Shown: positions 9,343 to 43,044 of the stretch, one piece after another
How the letters are laid out: every line of letters begins with the position of its first letter
Position numbering within the stretch: position 1 is the first letter of the stretch
Program-made: the position numbers and the translations under genes
DNA from: Candidatus Chryseobacterium colombiense
Lineage (GTDB): Bacteria; Bacteroidota; Bacteroidia; Flavobacteriales; Weeksellaceae
Reading direction: 5' to 3'
NCBI GenBank assembly: GCA_029203185.1
Contig: CP119310.1
Span: 3,626,052 to 3,690,051 of the forward strand
Length of the DNA: 64,000 bases
The notes under the pieces: model-generated
Told to the model about the DNA's origin: nothing
The model's database searches: none
Seen by the model: only the letters and a program-made list of their open reading frames with translations

Positions 9343-9344
9343 AT

Positions 9345-9947: not shown

Positions 9948-9974
9948 AATTTTATACTATATTTTTTATAGTTG

Positions 9975-10002: not shown

Positions 10003-10031
10003 CAATAACGGTAAAAAAGGATAGTATAAAA

Positions 10032-10370: not shown

Positions 10371-10387
10371 TCAAGAAAAAATCCTGA

Positions 10388-10966
10388 TTATTCTGTTATT
10401 TCTGTAGTCGCTTCCTGATTAGGTTTAAAAAAGCTGAAGCTTACGTTTCCGTATTTTCGGGTATCCATTAAATTCGGATGGTCAAATTTCATTCGGCTTT
10501 GATGCTCCACGATCAGTATGCCGTTTTCTTTTAGATATTTATTGTTTAATACTAAAGAAATCAATTCGTGGTATTTTTTTTCTTCCATTTCGAAAGGGGC
10601 GTCAGAAAATACGACCTCAAATGACTTTTTATTTCTAAACTTCTTTAGCCAGTCAAAAACATCCCCTCTCTGAACGTTAACCTGTAAGCTAAATCCTAAT
10701 TCAGAAGCTGTGGAATTCAGAAAGCTGGTGTGTTTGGGATTCATTTCTACAGAAGTAATGTCCTGACATCCTCTGGAAGCAAATTCAAAGGTTATAGAGC
10801 CAATTCCTGCGAATAAATCCAGCACGGAAACCGACTGCATATCATATGTATTTTCCAAAATACTGAATAGCGCCTCTTTTGCAAAATCCGTTGTTGGTCT
10901 TACATCAAAATTTTTCGGAGCGGCTATTTTTTTAGCTTTCCATTTTCCCGAGATGATTCTGTACAT
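10388..10966 (-). CDS. rsmD: 16S rRNA (guanine966-N2)-methyltransferase RsmD
   Basis: MYRIISGKWKAKKI..RPTTDFAKEALFSIL..VLDLFAGIGSITFEFASRG. Start moved to the internal Met (10966), which gives the usual family length. Confidence 0.85.
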   Translation of the reverse strand: MYRIISGKWKAKKIAAPKNFDVRPTTDFAKEALFSILENTYDMQSVSVLDLFAGIGSITFEFASRGCQDITSVEMNPKHTSFLNSTASELGFSLQVNVQRGDVFDWLKKFRNKKSFEVVFSDAPFEMEEKKYHELISLVLNNKYLKENGILIVEHQSRMKFDHPNLMDTRKYGNVSFSFFKPNQEATTEITE

Positions 10967-11038
10967 ATTATGGTAGGTTTTAAGTTGTAGATCGTAGGTA
11001 ACAGGTATACTAAACACATGTTATCTGGTTACTGCAAC

Positions 11039-11755
11039 CTAATTTAAAATAAAATTTTTATTAGGAATATTATCAAAAACGATTTTCAGATTCTTTACAA
11101 ACTTTTGTAATTCTGAAATAAAGGTTTCATTCTCTGTGGTTTCACCGTAGGCAAAAAAGCTGGTTTCATTAATTCCAAAACCTATTTTACTTAAAGTGAA
11201 CATCACAAAATAAAGAAAATCAACTTCTGAATTGACATCCAGATTATTATATAAGATGATTTTTTTATCATCAATAGCAAAAAACTCACACTGATTATGG
11301 TATAGGTTGATGTGAATTTCTTTATTGCTTTTATTATGAATAGCATTTAAAAACTTTTCCCCTGAAAAATTAAAATGAACAGGTATCCCTAGACTCTTTA
11401 TTTTCTGATAAAAATGTTTTGGAAAAGTGTAATAAAACTGAACCTTGAATTTTTTATTGACAGAAAGCATAAGCTCTTCGTTATCCTTATCAACAGGAGC
11501 GTTAAAAGCAATTAAGTCAAATCCTGCATCATGCTCAGAAAATCCTTCCGGCATTAAAGTAAAGTGATTCAAGGCTGAAATTACCTGAATTTCATCAAAT
11601 TTTTGTTTACCCAACACTTCATCCAGTTTATGTGAGATGAAATTTTCCGGAGTTTCTTCGTCTACGAAATAAGATTTTTCTTCCACAATGCTTTTATTTC
11701 TAGCAATTTGGAAGATCAGTCCGTCTTTGGTAAAAAGTAAATTAAGTACGTTCAT
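11039..11755 (-). CDS. DUF3822 family protein
   Basis: 238 aa. Assigned from the conserved Flavobacteriia position next to rsmD and from the size. The call rests on memory, not on a motif. Confidence 0.5.
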   Translation of the reverse strand: MNVLNLLFTKDGLIFQIARNKSIVEEKSYFVDEETPENFISHKLDEVLGKQKFDEIQVISALNHFTLMPEGFSEHDAGFDLIAFNAPVDKDNEELMLSVNKKFKVQFYYTFPKHFYQKIKSLGIPVHFNFSGEKFLNAIHNKSNKEIHINLYHNQCEFFAIDDKKIILYNNLDVNSEVDFLYFVMFTLSKIGFGINETSFFAYGETTENETFISELQKFVKNLKIVFDNIPNKNFILN

Positions 11756-19716: not shown

Positions 19717-22700
19717 TTAAAACGTCATTCCTATTCCTCCGGAGATTCTTCCGCCATCGGAACCTGTAAAATAATTCAATCTTGCCGAGAATGTTTCTAC
19801 AATGCTCATCCAGAAACCACCACCAATAGACTGATGCCATTTTCTTGAATCTTCATGATCATTCCAGACTCTACCGATATCATACCCTATCAGAATTCCC
19901 ATGTTTGCAGGAACAATAGGATTTCTTACCCTTCCGAAATCCCATCGGATTTCAGAGTTATTGGTAAAATAAGATCTTCCTGAAAACCTGTCATTTCTGA
20001 AAGCTCTCATTCCGTTGTTACCTCCAATGCTTGCTGCCTGGTAGAATTCAAAATTGTTATTATTGATCCACATGGCGTTGGTAGAATTCGCCAATACAAA
20101 GTTTCCTCTTTTATCAAGTCGGTGGTCGATAGAAAGCGAACCGTTGAGAATAAGGAAACTTTTTTCAATATTTGATAGGTTGGTTTTCCAGTCTGCATTT
20201 ACAACAAACTCCATTCCTAAAGTAGGAAAAGCGGTATTGTCTAAATTTTTGTAGCTGAAAGTATAATTCGCTCCGGCAAATTGCTGACTGCTGAATACCT
20301 CTTGGTTTACATCCGGAGAAACGTCTACAAAACGATTCCCTTTTCTTTGTACTTTATTGTTTTCAAACGTAAGCTGAAACTGATGTTGCAGATTCATCCA
20401 GCTTTTCTTAGAAATAGACGGTGCAAAGTTTAACTTTGATATTCTTGCTCTGTTGTATTTTCGGTCTGTGTTTTCTTTATCGTATTCACTTTCATTGGAT
20501 AATCCGAAAAAGTTTTCAGAAAATCGGGGAGTGCTGTACAATGCATCAATATTAAAATCCCATCCTGCGATTGCTTTTTTGAATATTCCTTTATATGCAA
20601 GATTAAAGCCAGCTGTAGCAGTGTAAAAATTAGCTTTTAAGCTGTGCTTTTGTGTAAAAGGATCACGAATGAAGTTATTGACGGTATAATTGACTAATGC
20701 ACCAATGATAACGCCATCATCAGGATTAAAGTCTATATTAGGATAACCGGCTACAAAATTATATTTCGGATGCTTGTAATTGTAGGTATTGATATCATAA
20801 TCATCCGAAATCTTTTTGGCTCCTTCACCGTTGTATGTATTTTTCTGTGATTTAAAATCATAGATTTTTACTTTACTTCCGTTGGCAACGGTATAAGTGT
20901 CATGATTATAGCCTCCGATTAATCTGATATTCATTTTTGGATGGCCTTCCCCGGAAACCTCATAAATATCATCGTCTTCCAGTCCGTAAATCCAGAGTTC
21001 CTTGGTTTTGGAATCCTCATAGGTCTTCTCAAAAACAAGTTCAGGGTTTTCCTGGTTTTTATCAAGCTTATACTGCTGTACAAGAACGGAATTTCCGTTC
21101 TTGGTAATGACAAATTTGTCAGGATTTACAGTTCCGGCTAACGGTACTTTTTCCTGTAAAACATCATAATATTGGGAAGCGTAATCCTGAAGTTTTGTTT
21201 TTCTGATTTTTAACTTTCGCTGTATATCAGCAAGTGTTTCATCCTGTACTTCTTTAGGAATATTGGTAAATGCTTCATCGATATTTTTATCCGTAAGATG
21301 TTCCTGAATATATTTTGCCTGTGCAATCCAGTCTTCCTGAGTCGCTCCTTTTAAGAATATTAAATCTAACGGATAAGGTTCCATATTCATCCATTTTACA
21401 TTTTTAATATCCTCTTTAAACGTTTTCATATGTCGGATAGCCGGAATATTCATAATAATCTTGAAAGCAGCTCCGTCATATTTACTGAAAGCCTGATCCC
21501 GGTCTCGTGGAATCGGCTTGTAAATAACCTTCTTGCCATCCTCATATTCTGCCCATTTCCATTGATCAGAATGTCTGTCCCAGTCACCAATCAGCATATC
21601 GAAGATTCTTGCTCTGATATAAGATTCCTTATCAATCGAATATTTATAACTTTTATTTAAGTTCTTTAAAACATCATCGGTAGAAAGAAGGTCTTTTGCA
21701 TTATCCAGAGAAGCCAATGTTTTCGGATCTGAAGAAAAACGCTCTTCAATCATATACATTTCGTTGCCATAGTTCTGATTATATTCACCTAAAGCCTGTT
21801 GCTTAGGAATGTAATATAATCTTGGATTGGAATGAGGTATATTAAGTTTTTCGGCCATATTCCCCACAGAAAAAGGGGTGAATGGATGATTGGTCGTATA
21901 AAAATCCAGTAAGAATTTATCCGGGAAAGTATTATTAAGCTCGTTTCCGAAAGTACTTTTCTTAAAGGCCATATTGTTCAGAAAACGGACTGCGCTTTTT
22001 TTGACTCCCCTCATGACAAATTCCTGTCCGTCCTGAGTTTTAAGGCGTAAACTATTCGACTGGTTTCCGCCGCCTTCTCTGAAAGGGGTATAGCCTCCGT
22101 CAAGTGTCGAAAGATTGGCGGTAGGAGCTTCAATCGGCATTCCGTAATATTTTCTGTAATGTTCCCCCCAAAGCCATCTGTAAATCGGTCCTTTCTGTGT
22201 TAATTTTTTAGGATAAATAGTGGAAGTAACAGTGGCTGGAAAAGAATCGGGATAATTATTGATAAATTTTTGAGGTTTTTCAATAACCTGAACATGGGTA
22301 AGCTTTTTTAGAGTATTGTTTTTTGTTGAAAAATATTCAATATCCGAACTCTCATCTTTTCTGATGTTCAATATGGCAAAGCCGCTTCCTCCGTAGGAAA
22401 AATCTGTCCTTGAGCCAATGGTTGCAGGATCTACTTTTGAACCAGCTCCACTTACAATTTGTCTGATGTTTCTTTCTTCATGATATTGAAGATTATGATC
22501 ATGCCCGGAAACAAAAATAATATTTTCTTTATCCTGAACAATACTTTTTAACCGGTTGGCTAAATCAGCGTAGTGTTGATTGTTTATATCTTCCGGGTTT
22601 GCTCCTGAAGAACTTCTTAAAATATTGATAATGCTTGCAATTCCGGGAAGAGGAATCTTCGTGTTTAAAGGAAAAAGATGAGAAGCCACAGAATTGTATC

Positions 22701-23430
22701 CTGCATGAGTTCCGCTACTGATAATGGGATGATGGAGTGCAACAATAATTCTCTTATCCTGATTTTTAGTAATCAGGTCTTTAAAGTCGGTGAAGAGGTC
22801 TTCACGGGTTTTAATGTCACAATTTTTATTGATACCCGGATAATTATCCCAGTTTGCCAATGCCCATTCTGTATCGATTACAATTAATTTAATATCTTTC
22901 GTTAAGCTGATATCATCAAGCGGGCACGAGTTTTTTGGCAAGAAAGCTTTTTTATCATTAAAATAATTTTTCACCAATTCTTCCTGAGCTTTTAAGCCAT
23001 CCAGTCCGCTGTACCAGTCATGATTTCCCGGAATTACCAGTGTTTTTCCCTGAAAGTTTTTGGTGATATCCAGTTGGGTTTCCAGTTTTTTCTTTGCCAA
23101 AGCATAATTTTCATCAGATTTTTTCGGCATTCCGCTAGGATAGATATTGTCTCCTAAAAAAATCAGCATAGAATTTTTACTGGCGGAGTCAAGCTTGGAT
23201 TTAAGCAGGTTTAAGGTTTGCTGAGATTGTGGTTCATCCGCATTACCGGCATCACCTATGAGAAAAATCTGGAAATCATTTTCAGCTTTGTTGTCAGAAT
23301 GTTGTATTTCAGATAAGTTTTTACCCTTTTTTACGTTATATGTTGCGCAGGAATAGAGTACTCCTGCGGATAATACCGTTCTTATGACGACGGACGTATT
23401 TTTTAAATGAGTTTTAAAGGATAAATTCAT
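19717..23430 (-). CDS. large lipoprotein: N-terminal calcineurin-like metallophosphoesterase plus C-terminal Omp85/BamA-like beta-barrel
   Basis: 1237 aa with lipobox LYSC. Phosphoesterase motifs GDAGN, GDNIYPSG, PGNHDW, HHPIISSGTHAG and SGHDHNLQY. The C-terminal roughly 350 aa are beta-barrel-like and end in GGIGMTF. Confidence 0.75.
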   Translation of the reverse strand: MNLSFKTHLKNTSVVIRTVLSAGVLYSCATYNVKKGKNLSEIQHSDNKAENDFQIFLIGDAGNADEPQSQQTLNLLKSKLDSASKNSMLIFLGDNIYPSGMPKKSDENYALAKKKLETQLDITKNFQGKTLVIPGNHDWYSGLDGLKAQEELVKNYFNDKKAFLPKNSCPLDDISLTKDIKLIVIDTEWALANWDNYPGINKNCDIKTREDLFTDFKDLITKNQDKRIIVALHHPIISSGTHAGYNSVASHLFPLNTKIPLPGIASIINILRSSSGANPEDINNQHYADLANRLKSIVQDKENIIFVSGHDHNLQYHEERNIRQIVSGAGSKVDPATIGSRTDFSYGGSGFAILNIRKDESSDIEYFSTKNNTLKKLTHVQVIEKPQKFINNYPDSFPATVTSTIYPKKLTQKGPIYRWLWGEHYRKYYGMPIEAPTANLSTLDGGYTPFREGGGNQSNSLRLKTQDGQEFVMRGVKKSAVRFLNNMAFKKSTFGNELNNTFPDKFLLDFYTTNHPFTPFSVGNMAEKLNIPHSNPRLYYIPKQQALGEYNQNYGNEMYMIEERFSSDPKTLASLDNAKDLLSTDDVLKNLNKSYKYSIDKESYIRARIFDMLIGDWDRHSDQWKWAEYEDGKKVIYKPIPRDRDQAFSKYDGAAFKIIMNIPAIRHMKTFKEDIKNVKWMNMEPYPLDLIFLKGATQEDWIAQAKYIQEHLTDKNIDEAFTNIPKEVQDETLADIQRKLKIRKTKLQDYASQYYDVLQEKVPLAGTVNPDKFVITKNGNSVLVQQYKLDKNQENPELVFEKTYEDSKTKELWIYGLEDDDIYEVSGEGHPKMNIRLIGGYNHDTYTVANGSKVKIYDFKSQKNTYNGEGAKKISDDYDINTYNYKHPKYNFVAGYPNIDFNPDDGVIIGALVNYTVNNFIRDPFTQKHSLKANFYTATAGFNLAYKGIFKKAIAGWDFNIDALYSTPRFSENFFGLSNESEYDKENTDRKYNRARISKLNFAPSISKKSWMNLQHQFQLTFENNKVQRKGNRFVDVSPDVNQEVFSSQQFAGANYTFSYKNLDNTAFPTLGMEFVVNADWKTNLSNIEKSFLILNGSLSIDHRLDKRGNFVLANSTNAMWINNNNFEFYQAASIGGNNGMRAFRNDRFSGRSYFTNNSEIRWDFGRVRNPIVPANMGILIGYDIGRVWNDHEDSRKWHQSIGGGFWMSIVETFSARLNYFTGSDGGRISGGIGMTF

Positions 23431-23456
23431 AAATTTACAATAACAAAATTTCAGTG

Positions 23457-24632
23457 ATGAGCATTTTACAAAAAGCCAAAGATTATGTTGAAATCTTATT
23501 CAAAGATAAGTTATCTTCGGTATACTTTTATCATAATTTTATTCATACTACTTACACAGTAAACAAGGCTGAAGAAATCTTGAAGCATACACCGGTTTCT
23601 GAAGAAGATCAGGAGAAAGTGCTGCTTGCTCTTTGGTTTCATGATACAGGGTACATAGAATGTGCGCAGAACCATGAAGAAAAAGGCGTTGAAATCATGA
23701 AAGATTTTTTGAAAAAAGAAAATTATCCTGAAAACGGGATCGAAGATATTGCCAAGCTTATTTTAGCTACTAAAATTACTTATGAGCCCCAGAATCTGCT
23801 GGAACAGATTGTAAAAGATTCGGATTGCAGCCATTTTGCGAGCCATGATTATAATGATATTTCTGATGCGCTCAGAAAAGAATGGGAGCTTACCAATGTG
23901 AGATGCTTTTCCAATGATGAATGGAATGCCGGAAATCTGGAAATGCTTAAAAATAAACATAAATTTTACACAGAGTATGCCAAAATGGCGTGGCAGCCTT
24001 TAAAGGAGAAGAATATCAAGAAAATTGAGAAAAAGTTGGAAAAAGAAGATGAAAAGGAAAGCAAAAAAGAAAATTCAGGGAATAAAAAAGAAAAGGAGCC
24101 AAAATCTGACCGAAGTGTGGATACTTTGTTCAGAGTAACGCTGAGTAATCATACGAGATTAAGTGATATTGCGGATAGTAAAGCCAATATTTTGTTATCT
24201 GTAAATGCTATTATCATTTCGGTTTGTCTTTCTGTTTTGGTTCCCAAACTGGATGCTCCAAAGAATTCACATTTGATTATTCCGAGCTTTATTCTTTTGT
24301 TATCCGCGGTTTTAACGATCATATTTGCGATTTTATCTACAAAACCTAATGTTACACAGGCTAAATTTACCTTACAGGACGTTGCCGACCGAAAAGTAAA
24401 TCTTTTGTTCTTTGGTAATTTTAACAGGATGATTTTTGACGATTATCAGAACGCGATGAATGTATTGATCAAAGATCGTGATTATATCTACGATTCGATG
24501 GTAAAAGATTTATATTATCTTGGGAAAGTGCTTGACAGAAAGTACAGGCTTTTGTCTATAACCTATAAAATTTTTATGGCAGGAATCATCATTTCTGTAT
24601 TGTCTTTCGGATATGCCTTTCTTACGCTGTAG
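23457..24632 (+). CDS. HD-domain phosphohydrolase fused to a Pycsar-effector-like (DUF5706/PycTM) three-TM module
   Basis: N-terminus has H...HD (FIHTTYTV...LALWFHDTGY). A K/E-rich linker follows, then RSVDTLFRVTLSNHTRLSDIADSKANILLSVNAIIISV plus two more TM helices and YYLGKVLDRKYRLL. The pattern matches my memory of PF18967. Confidence 0.65.
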   Translation: MSILQKAKDYVEILFKDKLSSVYFYHNFIHTTYTVNKAEEILKHTPVSEEDQEKVLLALWFHDTGYIECAQNHEEKGVEIMKDFLKKENYPENGIEDIAKLILATKITYEPQNLLEQIVKDSDCSHFASHDYNDISDALRKEWELTNVRCFSNDEWNAGNLEMLKNKHKFYTEYAKMAWQPLKEKNIKKIEKKLEKEDEKESKKENSGNKKEKEPKSDRSVDTLFRVTLSNHTRLSDIADSKANILLSVNAIIISVCLSVLVPKLDAPKNSHLIIPSFILLLSAVLTIIFAILSTKPNVTQAKFTLQDVADRKVNLLFFGNFNRMIFDDYQNAMNVLIKDRDYIYDSMVKDLYYLGKVLDRKYRLLSITYKIFMAGIIISVLSFGYAFLTL

Positions 24633-24681: not shown

Positions 24682-26997
24682 TTATTGATCCTGCGGAACA
24701 AGGGAAACTCTTAAAGCCAAAAGTCCTGTAATTCCCTGCAGATCTTCTACTTTTAAGAATTCTACATCATGGTGAAGAATATTTTTTTTCTGTAGCTTAC
24801 TGATATACTCCAAATATTCTCTTTGATTTTCCATTCCGAAATATACAATGGTAATTTTTCCCGGACAGGTAATTCTGTCGGAAGAATCTTTGATGTGAGC
24901 TTTATCTAAACGTTTTTTGATGATCTCATAATAAGAATTATAAGCACCATCTATATCAAAACGTTTTTCATCCATTCTGAAGCGGATGTCCACCTTCTCA
25001 TTATAGACAAATATTAAAGAAGCAATATCCAGAGGAACGGGTAAGCTTGTTTTGAAATTTTGAAACTCCTGTTCCAATGTACAAACAGTTTTCAGCTGCC
25101 AGTATCTGAGCCTGTGAACTACTTTTGAGGTGTAATGCAATTCAGGAGCAATTGCGTTGCCAATATATAAATTATGCTCAACGCCATCTGACTTAAATCT
25201 TTCATAATAATGCGGAAAGATCTGCTGTGCTTTAATCTGGCCTTCATCCAGAATATCTGCAAGCTTTCTGTTGACTAGCGTAATAGATTCGTCCAAGCTT
25301 TTTCTGTGGCCATAAAAAAGGTGATTCTGAGCGAAAACTTTGGAGAAGTAGTTTTTAATTTTTGATTTTACTTCTTTCGTACTTTTTATTTCCAGTTTTC
25401 CCTGCAAAAAAGGGTGAATTTCATCTCTTAAAAGCCTTTGAAAACGTTGCTCTGTATCTGCTTTAATATCATTATTCAGTTCATTTTCAAAAATATCTAA
25501 AGCCAGTAAATATTTTTCCGAATCCGAATTGATAAGGGAAAAAAGATCATGAAGGTTTTCTATCTGCTCATTTAAGTCTGCAAGCATTAGATTATAGCGC
25601 TTTTCAGAGGACGAACGAATATCAGAAAAGCTAAAAAGCGGAGTAAGATTTTTGAATGAAATCTGCTTCAATGTATACATTTTTCTCCCTAAAAATGCAT
25701 TGTAATATTTTTCTGCTTCATTTCTGAATTTCCAGACTACACTGTCGTGAATCGTGGTGTATTCTCTTTGAATAATGGCTTCTATCTGGTTATTTCTTTC
25801 AAAACTGAATCTGCTCAGAGAGAAAAGAATCATATCAGCGAAAAATTCAAGTTTTTTAAGCTTTAAACCATTAAAACTATATGCCAAAGGAGACGTGAAT
25901 TCCATGATGGCAAGAAGTTCATTGTCTTTCATGATCGGGATGACCATGAAGCTGTTGATATTATTATCTTTTAAAATACTGAATGAAGGAAGTTTTTGGA
26001 TCTCATGATCCAAATGATCAACATTTGAAATGACAACCGGCTTGGAATTATGGCTTAAATTATTGAAAGTACTTTCCCTGACTTCCTGATCAAAAGTATT
26101 GATCCAGAAATCGAGAATATGATTGGTGAAAACATTTTCATAGATCGGGACCTTTTCCAGTCTTTTTTCCTTTTTGTTGAAAAGCATTAATCCAAAATTA
26201 AGCTCAGGAACATCGAAATAGGATTTGAAAATTTCCTTTAGATTATCATCGGGAACCAGATTCTCCGGATCAATTTTAATCATGGTGGATTTTAAGTCTG
26301 ATAAAGCCACTTCCGAGGTACAGTCTACCAGAGAAATAATAGTAAAACCACTTAATATCCAAGATTTTGAAGGGAAATACTTTTTCCATAGCGCAGTATC
26401 ATCCAGATTTTCCAGAAGCATATCTATAACTGTGTCTGGAGGAATTGGCGCATCCGGAGTGGGATAAACCTCCGAGAAATCAGAATTTACCGTAATTTTG
26501 TAATGTTTCATGATTCCCTGTTTATTGGGAATATCATAATAAAAGGGAAGTGTGGTCTTGATATCTCTTTTGAAATAAGTCTGCAGGATAAGACAACAGC
26601 AGAAAACATAAAACTCATCATCATCAATGTTTCTGAGTTCAATTTCAAAGTCTTTTCCGGCCTCTTTCAGTATATTCTTGAACCGTTCAGTATAATTGAA
26701 TGTAATATTGGACAGTGGAATACTTGCTGCTTTGATTTCATTATTCGTTAAACCTGTTGGAAAAAGATCGGCAAGTAAAAGCTGGATGATATCTTCATAT
26801 TTGTTTAATAAAGATACATCCTGAAAACCATTTTTCAGTTCCTGAAAATTATTGGTTTTTTCGATAAGTGATTCTGCATAGTTCGCCCGGTATTCTAATC
26901 TGTCGTTATAACGGATATGCTCCAACACATCCAAATATTTTTTGAACGATATGTAAACCTGAAATGGAGCGTCTTTTTTATAAAGGTTTGCCAACAA
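24682..26997 (-). CDS. GAF domain-containing protein with uncharacterised N- and C-terminal regions
   Basis: 771 aa with a TTG start. The central segment SFMVIPIMKDNELLAIMEFTSPLAYSFNGLKLKKLEFFADMILFSLS looks like the C-terminal half of a GAF fold. I cannot place the remaining 230 aa (N-terminal) and 370 aa (C-terminal). Confidence 0.5.
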   Translation of the reverse strand: MLANLYKKDAPFQVYISFKKYLDVLEHIRYNDRLEYRANYAESLIEKTNNFQELKNGFQDVSLLNKYEDIIQLLLADLFPTGLTNNEIKAASIPLSNITFNYTERFKNILKEAGKDFEIELRNIDDDEFYVFCCCLILQTYFKRDIKTTLPFYYDIPNKQGIMKHYKITVNSDFSEVYPTPDAPIPPDTVIDMLLENLDDTALWKKYFPSKSWILSGFTIISLVDCTSEVALSDLKSTMIKIDPENLVPDDNLKEIFKSYFDVPELNFGLMLFNKKEKRLEKVPIYENVFTNHILDFWINTFDQEVRESTFNNLSHNSKPVVISNVDHLDHEIQKLPSFSILKDNNINSFMVIPIMKDNELLAIMEFTSPLAYSFNGLKLKKLEFFADMILFSLSRFSFERNNQIEAIIQREYTTIHDSVVWKFRNEAEKYYNAFLGRKMYTLKQISFKNLTPLFSFSDIRSSSEKRYNLMLADLNEQIENLHDLFSLINSDSEKYLLALDIFENELNNDIKADTEQRFQRLLRDEIHPFLQGKLEIKSTKEVKSKIKNYFSKVFAQNHLFYGHRKSLDESITLVNRKLADILDEGQIKAQQIFPHYYERFKSDGVEHNLYIGNAIAPELHYTSKVVHRLRYWQLKTVCTLEQEFQNFKTSLPVPLDIASLIFVYNEKVDIRFRMDEKRFDIDGAYNSYYEIIKKRLDKAHIKDSSDRITCPGKITIVYFGMENQREYLEYISKLQKKNILHHDVEFLKVEDLQGITGLLALRVSLVPQDQ

Positions 26998-27207
26998 CTG
27001 AAATTTAGAGTAAAGTTATGAAAAAAATAGATTTTTTCAGGAACGAAAAGTCAGAGATATGTGAGATTTACGAATGTATTTAAACTTAAATGAAATTATG
27101 CTTTATGTGTTCGATAAAAAAGTAATACTGTTGTTATTGTGATAGCTTAAAGGGAAATCTTACGATTTATGGAGATGTGCTATTGATTAAAGGAAGTCAA
27201 AAAACAA

Positions 27208-28251
27208 TTATTTTATCCTGCTTTTATGGACATAGCCCTGTTTTCCATTTTTCGTTTTAACAAGCCACCAGTCTCCGGATTGATCTAAAACTTCTACCTG
27301 TTCGCCCGAGTTTATTTTTTCTACAATTTCGGAAGATGTATTTTTATCTTTTCTGAGGTTAGTATATCCATCACTATCGTGGATATAGTATTCTGTATTT
27401 TCGCCTTTAATGATATAAGATTTAAAAAACGGCTTATATTTTACATTGTAAAGGGACAATTCATTTTTATCAAGCTTATTAACGATTTTATCATCGATAT
27501 AGTGGTATAAATTATAGTAAATAACCGTTTTGTTTTTCCAGCCTGTATCATATGACGGAGAAAAAATGGCTTCCACTTTATCTGATTTCTCAATCTGTTT
27601 TTTCAGCTCTGGAATTGAAAATTTATTAACAGCATCTTCACTGATTAACAACGCATCCTTTTGAAAATTAATATCCACAATATTCTTATCAAAATAGTCT
27701 TTATTGGTTAAAAATGCCTGCGGAAGATTCTGGTTGATATAATCAAGGAGTTTATTTTGCTTGTATTTATATTCTCCTTTAATAAAATAAGAAGGTTTAT
27801 AGAGAAATAACTGGAATAAATCCAGCTCATAATCTTCCAGATAATATCCTAAATTCTGATCATTGAAAATGAGTGATAAAAAATAATAAGATCTTATATC
27901 ATCCAATTGCTGTATCCGAACGAGCAGCAGTTTGATAAAAAATACCTGTTCGTATTGACCCTGATCAAAATTTCTACTGGTTAAAAATTTAAAAAAGCTA
28001 TTTCTGAAAGACTGATCCTCCAAAGAACTCACTTCTATTTGTTCTATGTATTCTCCGTTATACTTGTATTTATTAAAATCTAAATCTTCAATAAAGGAAT
28101 TGGAAACATTAATTCCATCTTTTAATTTGTCATTTATATTCATTGGAGCTGTTGTATTTTTTGAGGTTTCAGAGATTTTGTCATTTTTGTCCTTACAACT
28201 TATCATTAAAGGCAAAAAAAGTATAAGAAAAAATTTTATAAAACTTTTCAT
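27208..28251 (-). CDS. lipoprotein with C-terminal bacterial SH3 domain (candidate immunity protein)
   Basis: 347 aa with lipobox LMISC. C-terminal GEQVEVLDQSGDWWLVKTKNGKQGYVHKSRI is an SH3b-type motif. Its start lies 1 nt after the stop of the upstream toxin-like gene. Confidence 0.6.
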   Translation of the reverse strand: MKSFIKFFLILFLPLMISCKDKNDKISETSKNTTAPMNINDKLKDGINVSNSFIEDLDFNKYKYNGEYIEQIEVSSLEDQSFRNSFFKFLTSRNFDQGQYEQVFFIKLLLVRIQQLDDIRSYYFLSLIFNDQNLGYYLEDYELDLFQLFLYKPSYFIKGEYKYKQNKLLDYINQNLPQAFLTNKDYFDKNIVDINFQKDALLISEDAVNKFSIPELKKQIEKSDKVEAIFSPSYDTGWKNKTVIYYNLYHYIDDKIVNKLDKNELSLYNVKYKPFFKSYIIKGENTEYYIHDSDGYTNLRKDKNTSSEIVEKINSGEQVEVLDQSGDWWLVKTKNGKQGYVHKSRIK

Positions 28252-28252
28252 A

Positions 28253-30478
28253 TTATTTTTTTATAGTTACTTTACCGGGTTTCACATTAGGATTATTTTT
28301 CTTAAAATCTACCCACCAATCATAGAAAGCTTTTGCATCATCATCCCAGACTCTTATACAACCTTGGGTTCTTTTTAATGTTTTAACTTCATATCCCTCC
28401 TGGCGCCCTCCATGAATTCTTATGGCAGATCTTCCACTTTTTGCAGCTTCATCTTTGTTTCCGGCGATAGGCTCAAAAACAAGTCTAGGATTGGGGCCAT
28501 ATGATTTTCTATTCTCTTTATTGGATTGATAAAAAGGAGTGCTCTGGTTGATCTGAAATTCTCCAAAAGGAACATCCGAATTGGTTTTCATATGATCTTC
28601 ACCTGCAATTCCTTCCAATAAACAGTCATTGAAAGTTAAGACAATTTTTTGGTTATGATCATATACCTCAATTTTTCCTCTTCTACAATTGTTTCTCACT
28701 GCAGTTCTTTCTATGTGAGTACATTTACTTCCTGTATATTTCTCTGTGATTACGACATTCCATGTACTTTTATCCAAGGTAGGCTGTGCAGCCGCAGGTT
28801 CACTTTTATTGCATTCAAAAAATTTCACTTTATTTTGCTTTCCTTCTTCATAAAATTTTGAAATGCTTTTTTCGATTTCCCAGATATAAGTTTTACCTTC
28901 TCCGTCATATTGTTTTTCTCCATTTTCGAACCATATTTTCTTTTCATCATACAATTCAGAGAAAGTCTGGGTTTTTCCGTTACTTCTTTTTACTTTAATA
29001 TTTTTGTGGAGCTCCCCTTCATAATAGAATGCGGGATTTTGACGGTAACCATAATGTCTTGATTTGCTTAGATCGGTCAGGTTTCCGCTTTTGGTATAGG
29101 CAAGAGGATATTTGTTATCAAAAACGACATGGTTTGGCTCATTCCCTTTACCTACATCAACAGGCATCAGGATAGATAGATAAAAATCTGTAAGGGTATT
29201 TATTTTATCTTTTTTCTTTTCAAGATATTTTTCTACATACTCTAATTGCTTAACAGCAGTCATTTTCAGTAATGCTTCGCGTGTGGTTTTAACAGATTTT
29301 GCTGCCGAATCTCCAAACTGTATCAGACCCACATAGCTTGTTCCTTTACCGGCAGTAGGTGAGAAGGTTTTTCCTGTTTCCAAAGCCATTCCTGCCATAA
29401 GGAGATTGGGATCTTTTCCTAGCCTTTTGGCTATTTCAACGACTTTTTTTCTAAACTCACAGCTTACTTTTCCTCCCCATATCAGATCTTTATATTGTTC
29501 TTTACAAATACAGGTACTAGGTGCTTTGCTATCCGCATTTACTACTGTCGGGCTTTTTCCCGATGGATTAGAAGGGGCTGGTTTTTGATCCTTTTTTACT
29601 GTCCCTTTTACTTCCGCCCAATCGTGAATTTTTTTACTAATTTGTGTAACAACTCCTGAAATGACCTCTGTAGTTGTTTCTATGATTCCGTTTTGTTCTT
29701 TTTTGCTCTCTCCCTTTTTGGCAGCCGGAGAACCTGGAACTTTGGGTTGGGAAGTAGGAAGAGCGGGTTTAGATTGAGGTTTTCCTGGAGGGGTATTGAT
29801 TCCGGGAGGAGTATTGACGTTTACATTTTCTGAAGCATGTTTTTTATTTTCATAATATTCTACAGTGACGTAGAATTCCAGTTGTTTTACATCAGTTTCA
29901 CTTTGTATAGCTTTTTTCATCAAAGCTGAGGTAAGTATAAATTCTGCTTTAGCCGCTCCGTTTATTACTTTTCCCTGTTTACTGTCTACCTGCAAATTGT
30001 TAGCATTATGACCACTGTCTTTGGCATCATCTTCCCAAAGTGTAAATTTGAGATATTTTCCCTCTAAACCTACACATTGTGCTTCGGCGATAAGCTTTTC
30101 CGTAAAATTGAAGACTGTTCCCGGAGTATTGTCTACATATTTTAGCTGGATTCTATTTATCTTTGGAGTATCTCCAGGCTGAGGATTTATTTCAAGAGCC
30201 ATTGGAGCCTTGCCTTCCGGTTCGTGTAGATATGCTTCAATTCTATAAGTATTCTGATAGGCATTATTTTGAAATGTAAAACTGCTGATTCCTTTCTTTT
30301 TGATATTGGTAGGAACAAATTTTCCATTTACTTTCTTAAAAAGTTGCCATGTAACCAATGTCGGATTTCTTTTTTCTTTAGGGGTTGCCGGATACCATTC
30401 ATCAATGGTATAGGTTACAGTTTCTCCTATTTTGGGCTGGGTATTACCGGAAATTTTATAAACGCCTTGTTTTGACAT
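28253..30478 (-). CDS. multidomain peptidoglycan-targeting toxin candidate: SLT-like lytic transglycosylase motif plus C-terminal YkuD (L,D-transpeptidase)-like domain
   Basis: 741 aa with no signal peptide. A P-rich linker lies around aa 222-310. ALETGKTFSPTAGKGTSYVGLIQFG (aa 365-389) fits the GH23/SLT E-S-x-F-x-P...G-L-x-Q pattern. IRIHGG-x15-TQGCIRVWDDD (aa 686-714) fits the YkuD H-x(14-17)-[ST]xGC pattern. Confidence 0.65.
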   Translation of the reverse strand: MSKQGVYKISGNTQPKIGETVTYTIDEWYPATPKEKRNPTLVTWQLFKKVNGKFVPTNIKKKGISSFTFQNNAYQNTYRIEAYLHEPEGKAPMALEINPQPGDTPKINRIQLKYVDNTPGTVFNFTEKLIAEAQCVGLEGKYLKFTLWEDDAKDSGHNANNLQVDSKQGKVINGAAKAEFILTSALMKKAIQSETDVKQLEFYVTVEYYENKKHASENVNVNTPPGINTPPGKPQSKPALPTSQPKVPGSPAAKKGESKKEQNGIIETTTEVISGVVTQISKKIHDWAEVKGTVKKDQKPAPSNPSGKSPTVVNADSKAPSTCICKEQYKDLIWGGKVSCEFRKKVVEIAKRLGKDPNLLMAGMALETGKTFSPTAGKGTSYVGLIQFGDSAAKSVKTTREALLKMTAVKQLEYVEKYLEKKKDKINTLTDFYLSILMPVDVGKGNEPNHVVFDNKYPLAYTKSGNLTDLSKSRHYGYRQNPAFYYEGELHKNIKVKRSNGKTQTFSELYDEKKIWFENGEKQYDGEGKTYIWEIEKSISKFYEEGKQNKVKFFECNKSEPAAAQPTLDKSTWNVVITEKYTGSKCTHIERTAVRNNCRRGKIEVYDHNQKIVLTFNDCLLEGIAGEDHMKTNSDVPFGEFQINQSTPFYQSNKENRKSYGPNPRLVFEPIAGNKDEAAKSGRSAIRIHGGRQEGYEVKTLKRTQGCIRVWDDDAKAFYDWWVDFKKNNPNVKPGKVTIKK

Positions 30479-30495
30479 AACATTGCAATTTGGGG

Positions 30496-30996
30496 TTAGA
30501 TGGCATCGGCTTCATTGTCACTATTTTCCTTTTGGAATTCTTTAAAGTCCATAAAAGGATTAATGTTATGTTGTTCCTGAGGATCTGCATTCTGAACATT
30601 TTGATTATTCATAGCAGCAGTTTGCCCGTGTTCTTTTATTGTAATTTTTCCGCCTGTTGTACACATAAGTTCGGAAAGTTCTGTGACACAGGATTTGCCC
30701 ATGATTTTTACCTGTTCATAAGTTTTCTGCCATTTTCCGGCGGGTGCAAATGCACAAGGAAGATATCCTCCAGATGTAGGCTTGAGTTTACATTGTCCAA
30801 AACTTGGGCCTGGAGGAGTAAATTGCACATCGTCTTCTGTAACGGCTAAATAATCAGCTTCTCCTTCCTCACTGTTCCAATAATGTTTTTGGTGAGAAGT
30901 TACTTTATACTGCGGAAATTGATTGCCCTGATTACATTGGGCTTTCCCTTTTTGTACAACGAAATGCTTTCCGTCGTGTGGAGATGAACCGGACAT
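30496..30996 (-). CDS. DUF4280 (PAAR-like) domain protein
   Basis: 166 aa. HFVVQKGKAQCNQGN...FGQCKLKPTSGGYLPCAF...WQKTYEQVKIMGKSCVTELSELMCTTGGKITIKEHGQ reproduces the conserved Cys/Gly spacing I remember for PF14107. An acidic tail of about 40 aa follows. Confidence 0.7.
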   Translation of the reverse strand: MSGSSPHDGKHFVVQKGKAQCNQGNQFPQYKVTSHQKHYWNSEEGEADYLAVTEDDVQFTPPGPSFGQCKLKPTSGGYLPCAFAPAGKWQKTYEQVKIMGKSCVTELSELMCTTGGKITIKEHGQTAAMNNQNVQNADPQEQHNINPFMDFKEFQKENSDNEADAI

Positions 30997-31045
30997 ATTT
31001 TGTGTGTATTGATTTGGTTTTATAAATCTATAAAAAAATTAAGAG

Positions 31046-31068
31046 CAAAAAAGTAGTAGAATTACTAC
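31046..31068 (-). terminator. weak hairpin/terminator after the LysM-like gene
   Basis: GTAGTA (31053-31058) pairs with TACTAC (31063-31068). On the minus strand it is followed by a T-run (plus-strand A-run 31047-31052). The stem is short and AT-rich. Confidence 0.3.
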
Positions 31069-31123
31069 ATTTTTAAAACTTTAAATATTCACCTCATACA
31101 CTAATTGTTAAAAATAGTATTGC

Positions 31124-32188
31124 TTACTTCTCCTGTTTTTCCATCATGAAGATTTCTTTTTCCGTTACATCATCAATATATATATTGAAAGCAGCTTCTA
31201 TTTTCTTAAAAGATAAATCTGTTCGGTTAAAGCTGTACTCTGAAAAATAATCGCAATTAACAGCATTTTCTGTTAAAGGAGCTTTAGTATCAAAAATGGA
31301 AGACTTGGAGTAGAGCTGATCCATACTTCGGTTATCTGACGAACGTCCACTTTGGATAATTTTTAAGACAGCATCATTTTCTTTGGGCTGGATTGTATTC
31401 CGGAGTTCGAATCGGATAGGAGAGGCATTGGTAATCCAGGGTACAAAATCATAATAGATTTGTGAATCTGTCCAGTCACCATAGATTGCTCTATAGAAAG
31501 TACCTGTCAGAAAATGGACAGGTAATGTATTTTTGAGATTTTCTAAGAGAATTTTTTTATTTTCTATGACCGATTTCATTTGATTAATATATGAACTGGA
31601 ATATTCATCCGTGAAATAACTTTTCAGGGTCTCGAGGTGATCTTTAATTAAATTTTCAGGACTGGTTAAGCGGATATCTTTAATTTCAGTTTCCTCATTA
31701 ATGATAATTTGTAAAGGATATAAGACTTCAACACATGCTTTTGCCAAACTGGACATTTTGGTATCCGATTCTATTCCTTCTTTTTTAAAATCATACATTT
31801 GAAGGCTGAAAATATGTTCACTGTTATCAAGCTGGATATAGTTAAGATCAATTTGATACTCGTAATCTGTTAATAGAGCGTCATTTAAAAACTTCTGATG
31901 ATTAATTGTATACTTGCCTTTTAATAAATCAATTGGAAAGGGAATTTTACCTTGAGGCGGATGGTAATATAAGCTATCTCCGTTTTCAATAATTTTTTTG
32001 TTAAGTTCCTTTATTTCATTTCCAAATGGGAGCAGGAGAGATTGTCCCGTTCTCAAATCATCAAAAAAGCGTTCATGCTTAGCACAATGGGTATTATGAA
32101 ATTCTCTGAGATAGATTGGGTTTTCGATTTTAAGATCGGATGCAATTTTTTCTAATGAATCGTTGGGAAGGGCTATATAGGTAATCAT
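31124..32188 (-). CDS. hypothetical protein with N-terminal LysM-like motif
   Basis: 354 aa. YIALPNDSLEKIASDLKIENPIYLREFHN...LRTGQSLLLP resembles LysM (Y.V..GDTL..IA......L...N..L..GQ.L.IP) with an insertion. The rest is unassigned. Confidence 0.45.
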   Translation of the reverse strand: MITYIALPNDSLEKIASDLKIENPIYLREFHNTHCAKHERFFDDLRTGQSLLLPFGNEIKELNKKIIENGDSLYYHPPQGKIPFPIDLLKGKYTINHQKFLNDALLTDYEYQIDLNYIQLDNSEHIFSLQMYDFKKEGIESDTKMSSLAKACVEVLYPLQIIINEETEIKDIRLTSPENLIKDHLETLKSYFTDEYSSSYINQMKSVIENKKILLENLKNTLPVHFLTGTFYRAIYGDWTDSQIYYDFVPWITNASPIRFELRNTIQPKENDAVLKIIQSGRSSDNRSMDQLYSKSSIFDTKAPLTENAVNCDYFSEYSFNRTDLSFKKIEAAFNIYIDDVTEKEIFMMEKQEK

Positions 32189-32291
32189 ATGTTTTGTGCT
32201 GCGTTTTATAATAATTGCTGTTTAATTATTATAGGTTTGAATTAAAAGAATGAAGCTTTTAATTTTCAATAGGAAATTTATAAAAAAATAA

Positions 32292-32322
32292 CAAAAAAAC
32301 CTTTCAAGTAATTTGAAAGGTT
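32292..32322 (-). terminator. terminator of the nuo operon
   Basis: AACCTTTCAA (32298-32307) pairs with TTGAAAGGTT (32313-32322). A T-run follows on the minus strand (plus-strand A-run 32293-32299). It lies 26 nt downstream of the nuoN stop. Confidence 0.7.
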
Positions 32323-32347
32323 TTTAAATTTTATAATGGTAAGGCTT

Positions 32348-40802: not shown

Positions 40803-41684
40803 TTAATTATACTTTTTTGTATTAAATGTATATCCGATCCCCGCAAGTACCTGTCCGAAAACAAAATCCTGACGAGCTTTGTCCGGTTTATTGTTTAATG
40901 TGGTTTTAATGTCCCACATATTAATGTATCCAGCTTTTGCTTCTGCTCTGATCATCCAGTTTTTCCAGAAAACCAAGTTTAAACTTGATCTTAAATCGGT
41001 TCCCATCCCTGCAACGTGAAAACGGTCGCTTCTCTCATTTCCAAAAAGTTTAATATTACTTTTCGGGAACATTACTCCGATTCCGGCTCCGTAAGACCAT
41101 ACTAAATCTATATTTTTCTTATGAATAAGATTTTTGTATTTCTCAATACCCAAATTTTCATAATTCAATCCGTCTGTATGCTCAAAAGTAAGAAACTGTT
41201 CATCAGCTAAATTTACCTGACCGTTCTGTACCATCCCTGCATATTTCGGATCTGAAATATATCCTGAAAAATCAACCGTCTGGTTTTGTTTCATTACATA
41301 TTTCATATGGTCAATTCCAAGAACAAGAGCTAAATTATCTTTAATAAAATATCCTATTCTGAAATTATATTGCGTTACTGTAAACCAACTTGGATCAAAA
41401 TAAACAATTCCAAATTTTGTAGGTTTATCTCTTGCAGATACATTACTCAACTGAAAATCATAACCATTTCCTGTAAAGTGAATATCAGAATTACTGAATG
41501 CTCCCCTGTTCCATCCAAAGAAAGCGAACACCTGACCTTTTTTGCTTAACGGTAAAGGTTTTTCTTTCTTTTCTGCTTTATAAGGAGCTACCTCTAATTT
41601 ATATTCCTTTTCTAATGTATCTTTTTTGACTTGTCCAAAGGCAATCCCCGACATTAAAATACCGGCTACCAATAAATTTTTCAT
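40803..41684 (-). CDS. hypothetical outer-membrane beta-barrel protein embedded in the nuo operon
   Basis: Start set at MKNLLVAGILMSGIAFGQ (ATG at 41684-41682, 1 nt after the nuoF TAG stop). Signal peptide, alternating-hydrophobic beta-strand pattern, ends in IGYTFNTKKYN. Confidence 0.65.
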   Translation of the reverse strand: MKNLLVAGILMSGIAFGQVKKDTLEKEYKLEVAPYKAEKKEKPLPLSKKGQVFAFFGWNRGAFSNSDIHFTGNGYDFQLSNVSARDKPTKFGIVYFDPSWFTVTQYNFRIGYFIKDNLALVLGIDHMKYVMKQNQTVDFSGYISDPKYAGMVQNGQVNLADEQFLTFEHTDGLNYENLGIEKYKNLIHKKNIDLVWSYGAGIGVMFPKSNIKLFGNERSDRFHVAGMGTDLRSSLNLVFWKNWMIRAEAKAGYINMWDIKTTLNNKPDKARQDFVFGQVLAGIGYTFNTKKYN

Positions 41685-41685
41685 T

Positions 41686-43044
41686 CTAAGCATTGTTTTC
41701 AACAGCAGGAATTGGATCTGCATAATGTGCTAATCCGTAGTTTTGAGTCTGAGACAACTCAGGGTTTTTAATGTGCCATTCGAACTCATCTCTGAAGTGA
41801 CGAATAGCCGCTGCAACAGGCCAAGCCGCTGCATCGCCCAAAGGACAAATCGTATTTCCTTCGATTTTTCTCTGGATATCCCAAAGTAGATCGATGTCTT
41901 CCATTTTTCCTTCTCCTTTCTCGATTTTCTTTAAAATCTTATACATCCATCCCGTTCCTTCACGGCAAGGAGTACATTGTCCGCAACTTTCGTGATTATA
42001 GAATCTCGCTAAAGTCATAGTATGTTCTACGATACACTGGTCTTCATCCAACACGATGAAACCTCCTGAACCCATCATTGTTCCGGTAGCGAAACCACCA
42101 TCGGCTAATGATTCATAGTTCATATATCTTGGTTCTCCGTTTACGGTTCTTAATAATAAATTGGCAGGAACAATCGGAACTGAGCTTCCTCCAGGGATAC
42201 AAGCCTTTAATCTTTTTCCGTCTTTAATACCGCCGCAATATTCATCAGAGTAAATGAATTCTTCAACCGTGATGGTCATGTCGATTTCATAAACTCCTGG
42301 CTTATTGATGTTTCCACAAGCAGAAATTAATTTCGTACCTGTAGATCTTCCAACCCCGATTTTAGCGTATTCAGCTCCTGTAATATCAATGATTGGAACG
42401 ATTGCCGCAATAGATTCAACGTTATTAACTACTGTTGGTCTTTCCCAAAGTCCTTTTACAGCTGGGAATGGCGGTTTAAGTCTTGGATTTCCTCTTTTAC
42501 CTTCAAGAGATTCCAGCAATGCAGTTTCTTCACCACAGATATAGGCTCCACCACCTCTTTGAACGTAAATTTCGCAATCGAAACCAGTTCCTAAAATATT
42601 TTTACCTAAAAATCCTGCCGCTTTAGCTTCTTCAATTGCTTCTTCCAAAATATCCGGTATCCAAGAATATTCTCCACGGATGTAGATATAGGAAACATTT
42701 GAACCTAAACAGTAAGATGATATCAACATTCCTTCAATCAATAAATGAGGAAGAAACTCCATCAGATACCTGTCTTTGAAAGTTCCCGGTTCAGATTCAT
42801 CGGCGTTGACTACCAAGTGTCTTGGAACACCTTCTGGTTTTGCCAAAAAGCTCCATTTCATCCCAGTTGGGAATCCGGCTCCACCACGTCCACGAAGACC
42901 AGAAGCTTTTACTTCTTCAAGAATTTCGTCAGGTGTCATTTTCAAGGCTTTCTCTGCTGCGGTATAACCTCCCTGTTTACGGTAGGTTTCAAAATAGCGG
43001 ATACCTTCTATATGTGCGTCTTTAAGTAAAAGTTTTTTACTCAT
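41686..43044 (-). CDS. nuoF: NADH-quinone oxidoreductase subunit F
   Basis: 452 aa with GRGGAGFPTG (FMN/NADH site) and ESCGQCTPCREG (4Fe-4S). Confidence 0.95.
   Translation of the reverse strand: MSKKLLLKDAHIEGIRYFETYRKQGGYTAAEKALKMTPDEILEEVKASGLRGRGGAGFPTGMKWSFLAKPEGVPRHLVVNADESEPGTFKDRYLMEFLPHLLIEGMLISSYCLGSNVSYIYIRGEYSWIPDILEEAIEEAKAAGFLGKNILGTGFDCEIYVQRGGGAYICGEETALLESLEGKRGNPRLKPPFPAVKGLWERPTVVNNVESIAAIVPIIDITGAEYAKIGVGRSTGTKLISACGNINKPGVYEIDMTITVEEFIYSDEYCGGIKDGKRLKACIPGGSSVPIVPANLLLRTVNGEPRYMNYESLADGGFATGTMMGSGGFIVLDEDQCIVEHTMTLARFYNHESCGQCTPCREGTGWMYKILKKIEKGEGKMEDIDLLWDIQRKIEGNTICPLGDAAAWPVAAAIRHFRDEFEWHIKNPELSQTQNYGLAHYADPIPAVENNA

Follow-up and report, generated by a model that had tools for sequence, protein, structure and literature searches.

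A predicted type VI secretion cargo toxin of Chryseobacterium that joins a lytic-transglycosylase-type domain to a divergent YkuD-fold domain

Here, we report on an open reading frame (ORF) of 741 amino acids (aa) on the minus strand of a 64,000-nucleotide stretch of Candidatus Chryseobacterium colombiense (assembly GCA_029203185.1, contig CP119310.1, positions 3,626,052 to 3,690,051). The whole stretch is hereafter called the window, and all coordinates are counted in it unless a related locus is named. We consider it likely that this gene encodes the cargo toxin in an orphan module of four genes belonging to the Bacteroidota subtype iii (T6SSiii) type VI secretion system (T6SS), the module being composed of an adaptor, a PAAR-like spike tip, the effector, and an immunity protein. 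The identities of the domains, the linkage of the four genes, the modular swapping of domains among relatives, and the co-variation of the immunity gene with the toxin domain carry this reading. A first-pass annotation, made from the letters of the DNA, had proposed that one polypeptide joins a glycan-strand-cleaving domain to a YkuD-fold domain acting on the peptide stem, and this arrangement was borne out by independent domain evidence (Table 1).

The gene model is secure, and the strand, which the first-pass annotation had left unstated, is minus. The plus-strand frame over the same interval (28253..30478) is broken by many stops, and orthologues of the same length with 86-96% identity, the closest of which are found in a Chryseobacterium metagenome-assembled genome and in C. 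tagetis RG1, confirm the start codon and the ORF. Neither a signal peptide nor the C-terminal sorting domain of the type IX secretion system (Por_Secre_tail) was found in the 741 residues, and export by that system was rejected on these grounds. Searches of NCBIfam and PADLOC gave no match for the effector or for the immunity protein.

The C-terminal YkuD-fold domain

The Pfam family YkuD (PF03734) matches the whole protein with 35.1 bits against a curated cut-off of 23.4 (E=2.5e-8; aa 633-723 aligned to profile positions 38-139 of 146) and the isolated C-terminal domain with 37.8 bits (E=3.5e-9), i.e., the YkuD-like C-terminus proposed in the first-pass annotation is not a chance match. A Pfam scan of the isolated C-terminus at E<=10 returned no further family and so no DUF2778. 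An AlphaFold2 model of aa 568-741, built with 26 homologues in the alignment, reached a predicted local distance difference test (pLDDT) value of 85, and the top 11 Foldseek matches of this model in the PDB were all L,D-transpeptidases, of mycobacterial origin, which agrees with the proposed fold, though the matches are weak (E 9e-3 to 0.3, probability <=0.95, template modeling score 0.34-0.39). The family profile of the domain, when compared with the PDB by sequence, found no solved L,D-transpeptidase and no Tlde1a chain, only a collagen adhesin at the chance level (E=0.07). Because of these weak structural matches and a profile that reaches no solved L,D-transpeptidase, the predicted C-terminal domain is best described as a divergent member of the YkuD fold.

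The active-site segment, IRIHGGRQEGYEVKTLKRTQGCIRVWDDD at aa 686-714, lies where it had been placed, and H689, Q705, C707, and also R709 check out in the 741-aa translation, with 17 residues between H689 and C707 as claimed. YkuD domains are recognized here by a catalytic His followed, after ~14-17 residues, by [ST]-x-G-C-h-R with conserved Cys and Arg, and the effector reads H689-x14-T704-Q705-G706-C707-I708-R709. Conserved cysteines are also present at positions 586, 598, and 619 of the domain. In canonical L,D-transpeptidases the motif is [ST]HGC; the second His, before G-C, is not present here and is replaced by Q705, so that the TQGC variant pointed out in the first-pass annotation is real. 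Its special status is another matter. Among 26 homologues, the H, G, C, and R of the motif are invariant; the residue preceding G-C varies among Q, E, H, K, and S in 47 close homologues, in which IRIHGGRQ and GC[IV]R stay constant. When 1.84 billion representative proteins were searched with the profile of the domain, only 246 relatives were obtained at E<=0.001, and in the 140 of them that contain all motif columns, position 705 is H (45), Q (20), N (16), E (14), Y (8), K (6), or another residue, the motif H, T, G, C, and R being nearly fixed.

Mutation of the matching residue in Tlde1a (H129A) left D-amino-acid exchange at the wild-type level, with most of the cross-linking activity and part of the carboxypeptidase activity lost (PMC9638812). 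The free variation of position 705 among relatives, together with the retained exchange activity of Tlde1a H129A, indicates that TQGC is, as judged from homologues and from this analogy, ordinary variation at a non-essential position and does not define the clade. One might still argue from the departure from the canonical motif, and from the strongly reduced cross-linking and partly reduced carboxypeptidase activity of H129A, that Q705 disables or re-purposes the domain and turns the C-terminus into a binding module or pseudo-enzyme. We regard this as very improbable, given that H689, G690, T704, G706, C707, and R709 are invariant or nearly so, that position 705 is free and is a His in some close homologues, that a dedicated immunity gene is retained, and that the exchange activity of the Tlde1a mutant was undiminished.

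The lytic-transglycosylase-type domain and the linker

The middle domain matches PDB entry 9udh, deposited as a lytic transglycosidase (E=2.3e-25), and, more distantly, the phage internal protein 9k2v_E (E=1e-6). Its PHROG matches are virion-lysin families, including phrog_196, "baseplate hub" (E=1.4e-26). The second segment quoted in the first-pass annotation, ALETGKTFSPTAGKGTSYVGLIQFG, is found at aa 365-389 as stated, with E367 in the expected place. A catalytic Glu (E-S/T) at a helix end followed by G-L-x-Q marks the glycoside hydrolase family 23 (GH23)/SLT enzymes, and both ALE367TG and G384-L-I-Q387 are invariant in 12 diverse relatives. The proposed glycan-cleaving domain is therefore upheld by the 9udh match and the Glu/GLxQ pattern, while its membership of GH23/SLT is not, no SLT model of Pfam matching the domain; the putative link to GH23/SLT rests on 9udh and the virion-lysin families of PHROG. 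A PAAR-like+RHS protein in one related locus (L029) has the LT-type domain as its sole toxin tip.

The proline-rich linker in front of this domain was also confirmed, as a K/P/S/T-rich segment (aa 226-325).

Loading domain, spike tip, and adaptor

The beta-rich N-terminal part that had been described in general terms is present, and the AlphaFold2 model of aa 1-225 (pLDDT 84.6) consists of two beta-sandwiches. When this model was compared with the PDB by Foldseek, the best two matches were 9jdh, the N-terminal domain of BtaeB (BtaeB-NTD; E=1.8e-8), and 9jg8_C (E=1.4e-7), i.e., BtaeB within the BtpeA-BtaeB-BtapC-VgrG cargo complex, both ahead of generic Ig-like folds. By sequence, the profile of the N-terminal domain gave only noise from the ribosomal protein eL24 and reached 9jdh at E=1, so the likeness to BtaeB is structural only.

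The gene immediately upstream, whose end lies 17 bp before the effector start, encodes a DUF4280 protein (Pfam, E=7.8e-19), and phmmer relates its product to the PAAR-like N-terminus of BtpeA (9jg8_B; E=1.9e-5). This linkage, and the resemblance of the N-terminal domain to BtaeB-NTD, sustain the earlier idea that the N-terminal part loads the protein on a PAAR-like partner. Further upstream lies the adaptor gene. As a single sequence, the adaptor found nothing in Pfam and only chance matches in the PDB, and a family profile was needed: built from 29 family members, it matches 9jg8_A, "Bacteroides T6SS Adapter Protein C", at E=7.9e-16, and its positions 5-33 match LysM proteins (LytE, 2.8e-7). 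The LysM-like module (adaptor aa 1-55) is found in the Flavobacteriia family and is absent from BtapC of B. fragilis. It is odd for a presumably cytoplasmic chaperone, and it recalls the LysM domain in the VgrG-binding region of Tae17.

The linkage was then considered across species. We collected 80 loci from contigs of one genome per species via an alignment of the LT-type domain, to which four loci gathered earlier and the window were added, and annotated them with custom hidden Markov models; please note that some strains are redundant. A PAAR-like ORF lies within 200 bp upstream of 43 of the 48 effectors that contain the N-terminal domain and of none of the 29 that lack it. Adaptor homologues adjoin the DUF4280 genes in 41 of the 48 loci with N-terminal-domain effectors.

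A modular effector family

Breakpoints in homologues fall near aa 320, 447, and 560, with the partner switch at about aa 313-325, inside the linker. On the scaffold of the N-terminal and LT-type domains, YkuD is replaced by M23, Amidase_2, CHAP, GH19 (chitinase), or VanY. Conversely, the LT-YkuD unit also occurs alone, behind other N-termini, or fused to TssD/Hcp (P0044, TssD(Hcp)-LT-YkuD), and DUF4280 is fused to LT-bearing proteins in two species (L023 and L035). The YkuD-like domain is found at the end of DUF6443+RHS proteins as well (P0141, P0150, P0178, and P0225 in the profile search). Polymorphic toxins are marked by an N-terminal part that stays constant, C-terminal toxin domains that recombine, and a matched immunity gene immediately downstream, and all of these are seen here.

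In Flavobacterium anhuiense (L004), the loading domain (252 aa, locus positions 9190-9948) and the LT-YkuD unit (414 aa, 10001-11245) are encoded by separate adjacent genes, which are a single 717-aa gene in another strain (L017); the two-gene form is either a split or a frameshifted effector.

Several relatives stand next to secretion machinery. The M23 variant P0057 is part of a T6SSiii cluster in which TssO, TssR, DUF4280, and the effector are followed by TssD, ClpV, and VgrG; the F. anhuiense effector copy adjoins TssN; and homologues of T6SS core genes are found within 8 kb in 18 of the 85 loci. Outside Bacteroidota, proteins of Acinetobacter and Psychrobacter with LysM, LT, and an Amidase_3, CHAP-like, or M15 domain share the LT family at 38-42% identity.

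The first-pass annotation had called the protein an unusual two-warhead effector. This is overstated: most of the 80 related loci, and many of the 120 homologues among the matches listed, pair the LT-type domain with another wall hydrolase, and Tae17 and Tse4 (see below) are characterized bifunctional precedents.

The downstream lipoprotein as candidate immunity protein

The gene that begins 1 nt past the effector stop encodes a lipoprotein with an SH3_3 match (E=2e-13). Its core family lies within 60 bp downstream of all 16 YkuD-type effectors and of none of the 68 other effectors, and because of this co-occurrence the lipoprotein is likely, as far as comparison of loci can tell, to be the immunity protein of the YkuD domain. 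Most family members have a cysteine after a hydrophobic signal segment, a strict lipobox being present in 14 of 21 among the matches listed, and these lipoprotein signals point to the periplasm as the site of toxin action.

The SH3b tail of the window lipoprotein (aa 295-347, window 27208-27366) shares 70% identity with the tail that an unrelated lipoprotein of the F. anhuiense effector array carries (L004, 13777-14934), and an SH3 domain is missing from the immunity-core homologue of F. anhuiense. From these two observations, the SH3b module seems to be shuffled among immunity-type lipoproteins.

A second family of small proteins concerns the LT-type domain. Directly after the Rhs protein with the LT toxin tip in L029 comes a secreted domain of ~125 aa (locus positions 8592-9026), which recurs either alone or as the C-terminal half of ~300-aa lipoproteins, e.g., L003 12238-13167 (aa 189-309). 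It follows LT effectors with at least four C-terminal types and is also present in L032, L033, L036, L037, and L041-L050. Its position after an Rhs protein with an LT-only tip, and after LT effectors of varied C-termini, suggests a candidate family of LT-specific immunity proteins. The idea that the window lipoprotein hides a relative of this domain, i.e., a two-domain immunity protein, was rejected on an hhalign probability of 0.5%.

Proposed mechanism and alternative explanations

The secretion route, the chemistry of each domain, and the toxicity are modeled on the B. fragilis complex (PMC13402684), Tae17, and Tlde1. The effector would be made in the cytoplasm, without a signal peptide, and its double beta-sandwich N-terminal domain would dock, aided by the BtapC-family adaptor, onto the DUF4280 tip that caps the VgrG spike, a step for which the BtpeA-BtaeB-BtapC-VgrG structure is the template. 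Firing of the T6SS would bring the effector into the periplasm of a neighboring Gram-negative cell. There, the LT-type domain (E367) would cut the backbone between N-acetylmuramic acid and N-acetylglucosamine, and the YkuD-fold thiol peptidase (H689/C707/R709) would attack the L,D bond at stem-peptide position 3, most likely as an L,D-carboxypeptidase or in D-amino-acid exchange as in Tlde1, or by cleaving 3-3 cross-links. Both activities together would weaken the sacculus, and the downstream periplasmic lipoprotein would block at least the YkuD domain and so shield the producer and its kin.

Several observations weigh against this proposal. No T6SS core gene was found in the 64-kb window, and the presence of a T6SS in this genome is therefore an assumption. 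In Pfam, the LT-type domain is matched by no SLT model and only by Glucosaminidase at E=0.02, below the cut-off; the name of 9udh is that of its depositor, and our search found no paper mentioning 9UDH. The YkuD domain is assigned from a single Pfam hit together with structural matches that are weak (E 9e-3 for the best in Foldseek), and no L,D-transpeptidase of the PDB was found at the sequence level. Lastly, the ~125-aa candidate for LT immunity is absent from all YkuD-type cassettes and from the entire window. Either the window lipoprotein covers both domains, or the LT half is a wall-opening aid rather than a toxin in this subclade.

The second of these options is the most serious alternative, and we consider it less probable but worth weighing: only YkuD would be the toxin, and the LT-type domain, in the manner of phage-tail lysins, would open the wall locally and help the spike or cargo through the peptidoglycan, with no need for an immunity protein of its own. 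The LT-type domain is indeed the constant part of the family while the C-termini vary; among viruses, its relatives are proteins of the baseplate hub and of the virion interior; the immunity family downstream tracks YkuD strictly, and not LT; and no domain like the LT-immunity candidate was seen in the YkuD-type cassettes or at any place in the window. Against it, an Rhs protein has the LT-type domain as its only toxin tip and is followed by a small secreted protein; homologues of that small protein follow LT effectors with several C-termini and look like LT-specific immunity; and the LT activity dominates killing in Tae17 (PMC11796386), a parallel in architecture, with probably the same LT family.

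The fusion may also be read as counter-defense. LD (3-3) cross-links in the peptidoglycan of prey inhibit predatory lytic transglycosylases, including the T6SS effector Tse4, and the authors of that work asked whether predators have evolved ways around this protection (Alvarez et al. 2024, PMC11390936). An L,D-peptidase tethered to the LT domain could locally lift the block, either by cleaving 3-3 cross-links or by trimming tetrapeptides to tripeptides and so depriving the L,D-transpeptidases of the prey of donor substrate, after which the LT domain would degrade otherwise resistant walls, i.e., the two domains would act as sequential steps of one attack and not as toxins independent of each other. 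This idea is speculative, since many other hydrolases are found on this LT scaffold too, and we think it rather unlikely.

We find it hard to believe that the cassette serves another contractile injection device, i.e., an extracellular contractile injection system (eCIS) or a tailocin. DUF4280 tips cap such particles too, PMC8651086 places PAAR homologues on eCIS as well as on T6SS, the LT-type domain has phage relatives, and the window holds no T6SS core genes; yet relatives lie within T6SSiii clusters (TssN/O/R, TssD, ClpV, and VgrG) or are fused to TssD, the adaptor and the N-terminal domain match the T6SS cargo complex of B. fragilis, and no sheath, tube, or baseplate genes were seen near the four loci whose gene tables were examined. 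Equally doubtful is a housekeeping or machine-assembly enzyme that remodels the peptidoglycan of the producer itself, e.g., for passage of the T6SS, as opposed to an antibacterial toxin: in several Chryseobacterium species an M23 paralogue does have a set position within the core T6SS cluster, some Bacteroides effectors are required for T6SS function itself (PMC13402684), and homologues are named simply "L,D-transpeptidase" by NCBI, but the protein has no signal peptide and so could not enter the producer's periplasm through Sec, hypervariable C-termini come with matching lipoproteins downstream, orphan copies sit in a hot spot that is bounded by nuoN and a conserved gene, and both domains serve as Rhs toxin tips.

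Comparison with known systems and significance

Among the closest described counterparts of the toxin proposed here is the BtpeA-BtaeB-BtapC cargo complex on VgrG of the B. fragilis GA3 T6SS (PDB 9jg8 and 9jdh; Li et al. 2025, in the account given by PMC13402684). This complex and the Bte3-Ate3-Pte3 set share with the window the logic of a BtapC/Ate3-family adaptor, a DUF4280 tip, and a cargo with a beta-sandwich N-terminus, and the adaptor family, tip, and N-terminal domain of the window each match the corresponding chain of the B. fragilis complex. The differences are that the tip is a bare 166-aa protein here and an effector fusion there, that the adaptor here carries an extra N-terminal LysM-like module, that the toxin part is LT+YkuD in contrast to the C39-like peptidase of BtaeB and the beta-barrel of Bte3, and that the host is a free-living member of Flavobacteriia.

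Tae17 of A. baumannii AB307-0294, for which LT and amidase activities were both demonstrated with LT dominant in killing, has as its best match outside Acinetobacter a Psychrobacter LysM protein (PMC11796386). It resembles the effector as a modular T6SS cargo in which an Ig-like domain for delivery stands at the N-terminus, linkers are present, and an LT domain with its catalytic Glu is combined with another wall hydrolase, and, compared by description, it probably belongs to the same LT family. However, its second domain is a CHAP amidase, not YkuD, and it loads directly on the VgrG C-terminus of a proteobacterial T6SS of subtype i (T6SSi). Tse4 of A. baumannii ATCC 17978, a bifunctional T6SS effector with lytic transglycosylase and endopeptidase activities (bioRxiv 10.1101/2021.03.04.433973), is likened to the effector by its described activities only.

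Tlde1/Tae5 (Pfam DUF2778) of the Salmonella SPI-6 T6SS is an L,D-carboxypeptidase/exchange enzyme (PMC9638812; bioRxiv 10.1101/2020.02.18.954545). Like the proposed effector, it is a toxin of a T6SS whose fold is of the L,D-transpeptidase type and whose catalysis uses His and Cys; in the periplasm it attacks the bond joining meso-diaminopimelic acid at position 3 to D-Ala4 (mDAP3-D-Ala4) and has a periplasmic immunity protein. The Tlde1/Tae5-7 group is defined by a DUF2778 (PF10908) match and a shorter His-Cys spacing. No such match was found, Tlde1a is absent among the 50 listed Foldseek matches of the YkuD model, and membership was rejected; of the Tlde1 comparison made in the first-pass annotation, the analogy remains. 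Tlde1 proteins are mostly single-domain and proteobacterial, in contrast to the C-terminal module after an LT domain in Bacteroidota seen here. Rhs toxins with an L,D-peptidase domain were predicted by Zhang et al. 2012 (PMC3482391), and their toxin-domain clade appears to be the same as that of the effector C-terminus, the profile finding DUF6443+RHS proteins. Delivery is by the Rhs cage in those toxins; the effector here has an N-terminal loading domain plus the LT domain.

The system is a new combination of already known parts, not a new kind of system, and its interest is modest. The gain is incremental rather than conceptual because every element has a described precedent and the homologues are already annotated in databases, labeled simply "L,D-transpeptidase" by NCBI. 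In our literature search, neither an effector combining LT with an L,D-peptidase nor this clade of YkuD toxins in Bacteroidota turned up in any paper. If the proposal holds, the protein would be the first characterized T6SS effector with a lytic transglycosylase and an L,D-peptidase, and the first YkuD-fold (non-DUF2778) toxin shown to be functional in Bacteroidota. The family is a natural domain-swap set on one scaffold, with LT joined to M23, CHAP, amidase, chitinase, VanY, or YkuD, which could serve the study of cooperation in wall degradation and of one or two immunity domains against bifunctional toxins, and it could inform on the BtapC-type adaptor route beyond gut Bacteroides.

Table 1. 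Coordinates of the module, its domains, and candidate residues in the window
Feature	Position	Strand	Remark
Terminator-like hairpin and T-run	32295..32325	minus	after nuoN; consensus match only; separates nuo operon from cassette
Adaptor gene, 354 aa	31124..32188	minus	N-terminal LysM-like module, then BtapC/Ate3-family T6SS adaptor domain
PAAR-like spike-tip gene, DUF4280, 166 aa	30496..30996	minus	Pfam; short acidic tail
Effector gene, 741 aa plus stop codon	28253..30478	minus	ATG start
Loading domain, aa 1-225	29804..30478	minus	two beta-sandwich modules; AlphaFold2 model, Foldseek
Linker, aa 226-325	29504..29803	minus	low-complexity, K/P/S/T-rich; also recombination breakpoint
Predicted lysozyme-like, lytic-transglycosylase-type domain, aa 326-565	28784..29503	minus	PDB 9udh, PHROG, invariant residues
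E367	29378-29380	minus	catalytic candidate, LT domain
GLIQ, aa 384-387	29318-29329	minus	LT domain
Predicted YkuD-fold L,D-peptidase toxin domain, aa 572-741	28256..28765	minus	Pfam PF03734, AlphaFold2 model, invariant residues
H689	28412-28414	minus	YkuD catalytic candidate
Q705	28364-28366	minus	residue preceding G706-C707
C707	28358-28360	minus	YkuD catalytic candidate
R709	28352-28354	minus	YkuD motif
Candidate immunity gene, 347 aa	27208..28251	minus	lipoprotein signal (Cys19), ~230-aa core without known family, C-terminal SH3b

Locus context and neighboring genes

The cassette occupies a hot spot (window 26998-32347) flanked by nuoN on one side and, on the other, by a conserved gene of 771 aa that gives a weak GAF match (24682-26997). 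In other Chryseobacterium species (L071, L038, L059, and L064), different effector variants lie between the same two flanking genes, and the C. soldanellicola effector at the nuoN hot spot is found without the tip and adaptor genes. The GC content of the cassette dips mildly, to 0.29-0.31 over the immunity and adaptor genes from about 0.35, which is not decisive for recent transfer. A promoter scan with the sigma-70 consensus, which is ill-suited to Bacteroidota, was not above shuffles (28 vs 22±4).

Beyond the conserved flanking gene, a 392-aa protein (window 23454-24632, plus strand) has an HD phosphohydrolase fused to a Pycsar-type transmembrane effector domain (Pfam PycTM, E=2.4e-32; PADLOC PycTM, 3e-16) and is conserved in C. 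tagetis RG1; no cyclase gene was seen near it. Inside the nuo operon, a 306-aa ORF that matches no Pfam family (window 40803-41723, minus strand) lies between the NuoF-type and NuoG-type genes and overlaps the end of its upstream gene by 38 bp. A 1237-aa protein (window 19717-23430, minus strand) combines a calcineurin-like phosphoesterase domain with an Omp85/BamA-like C-terminus.

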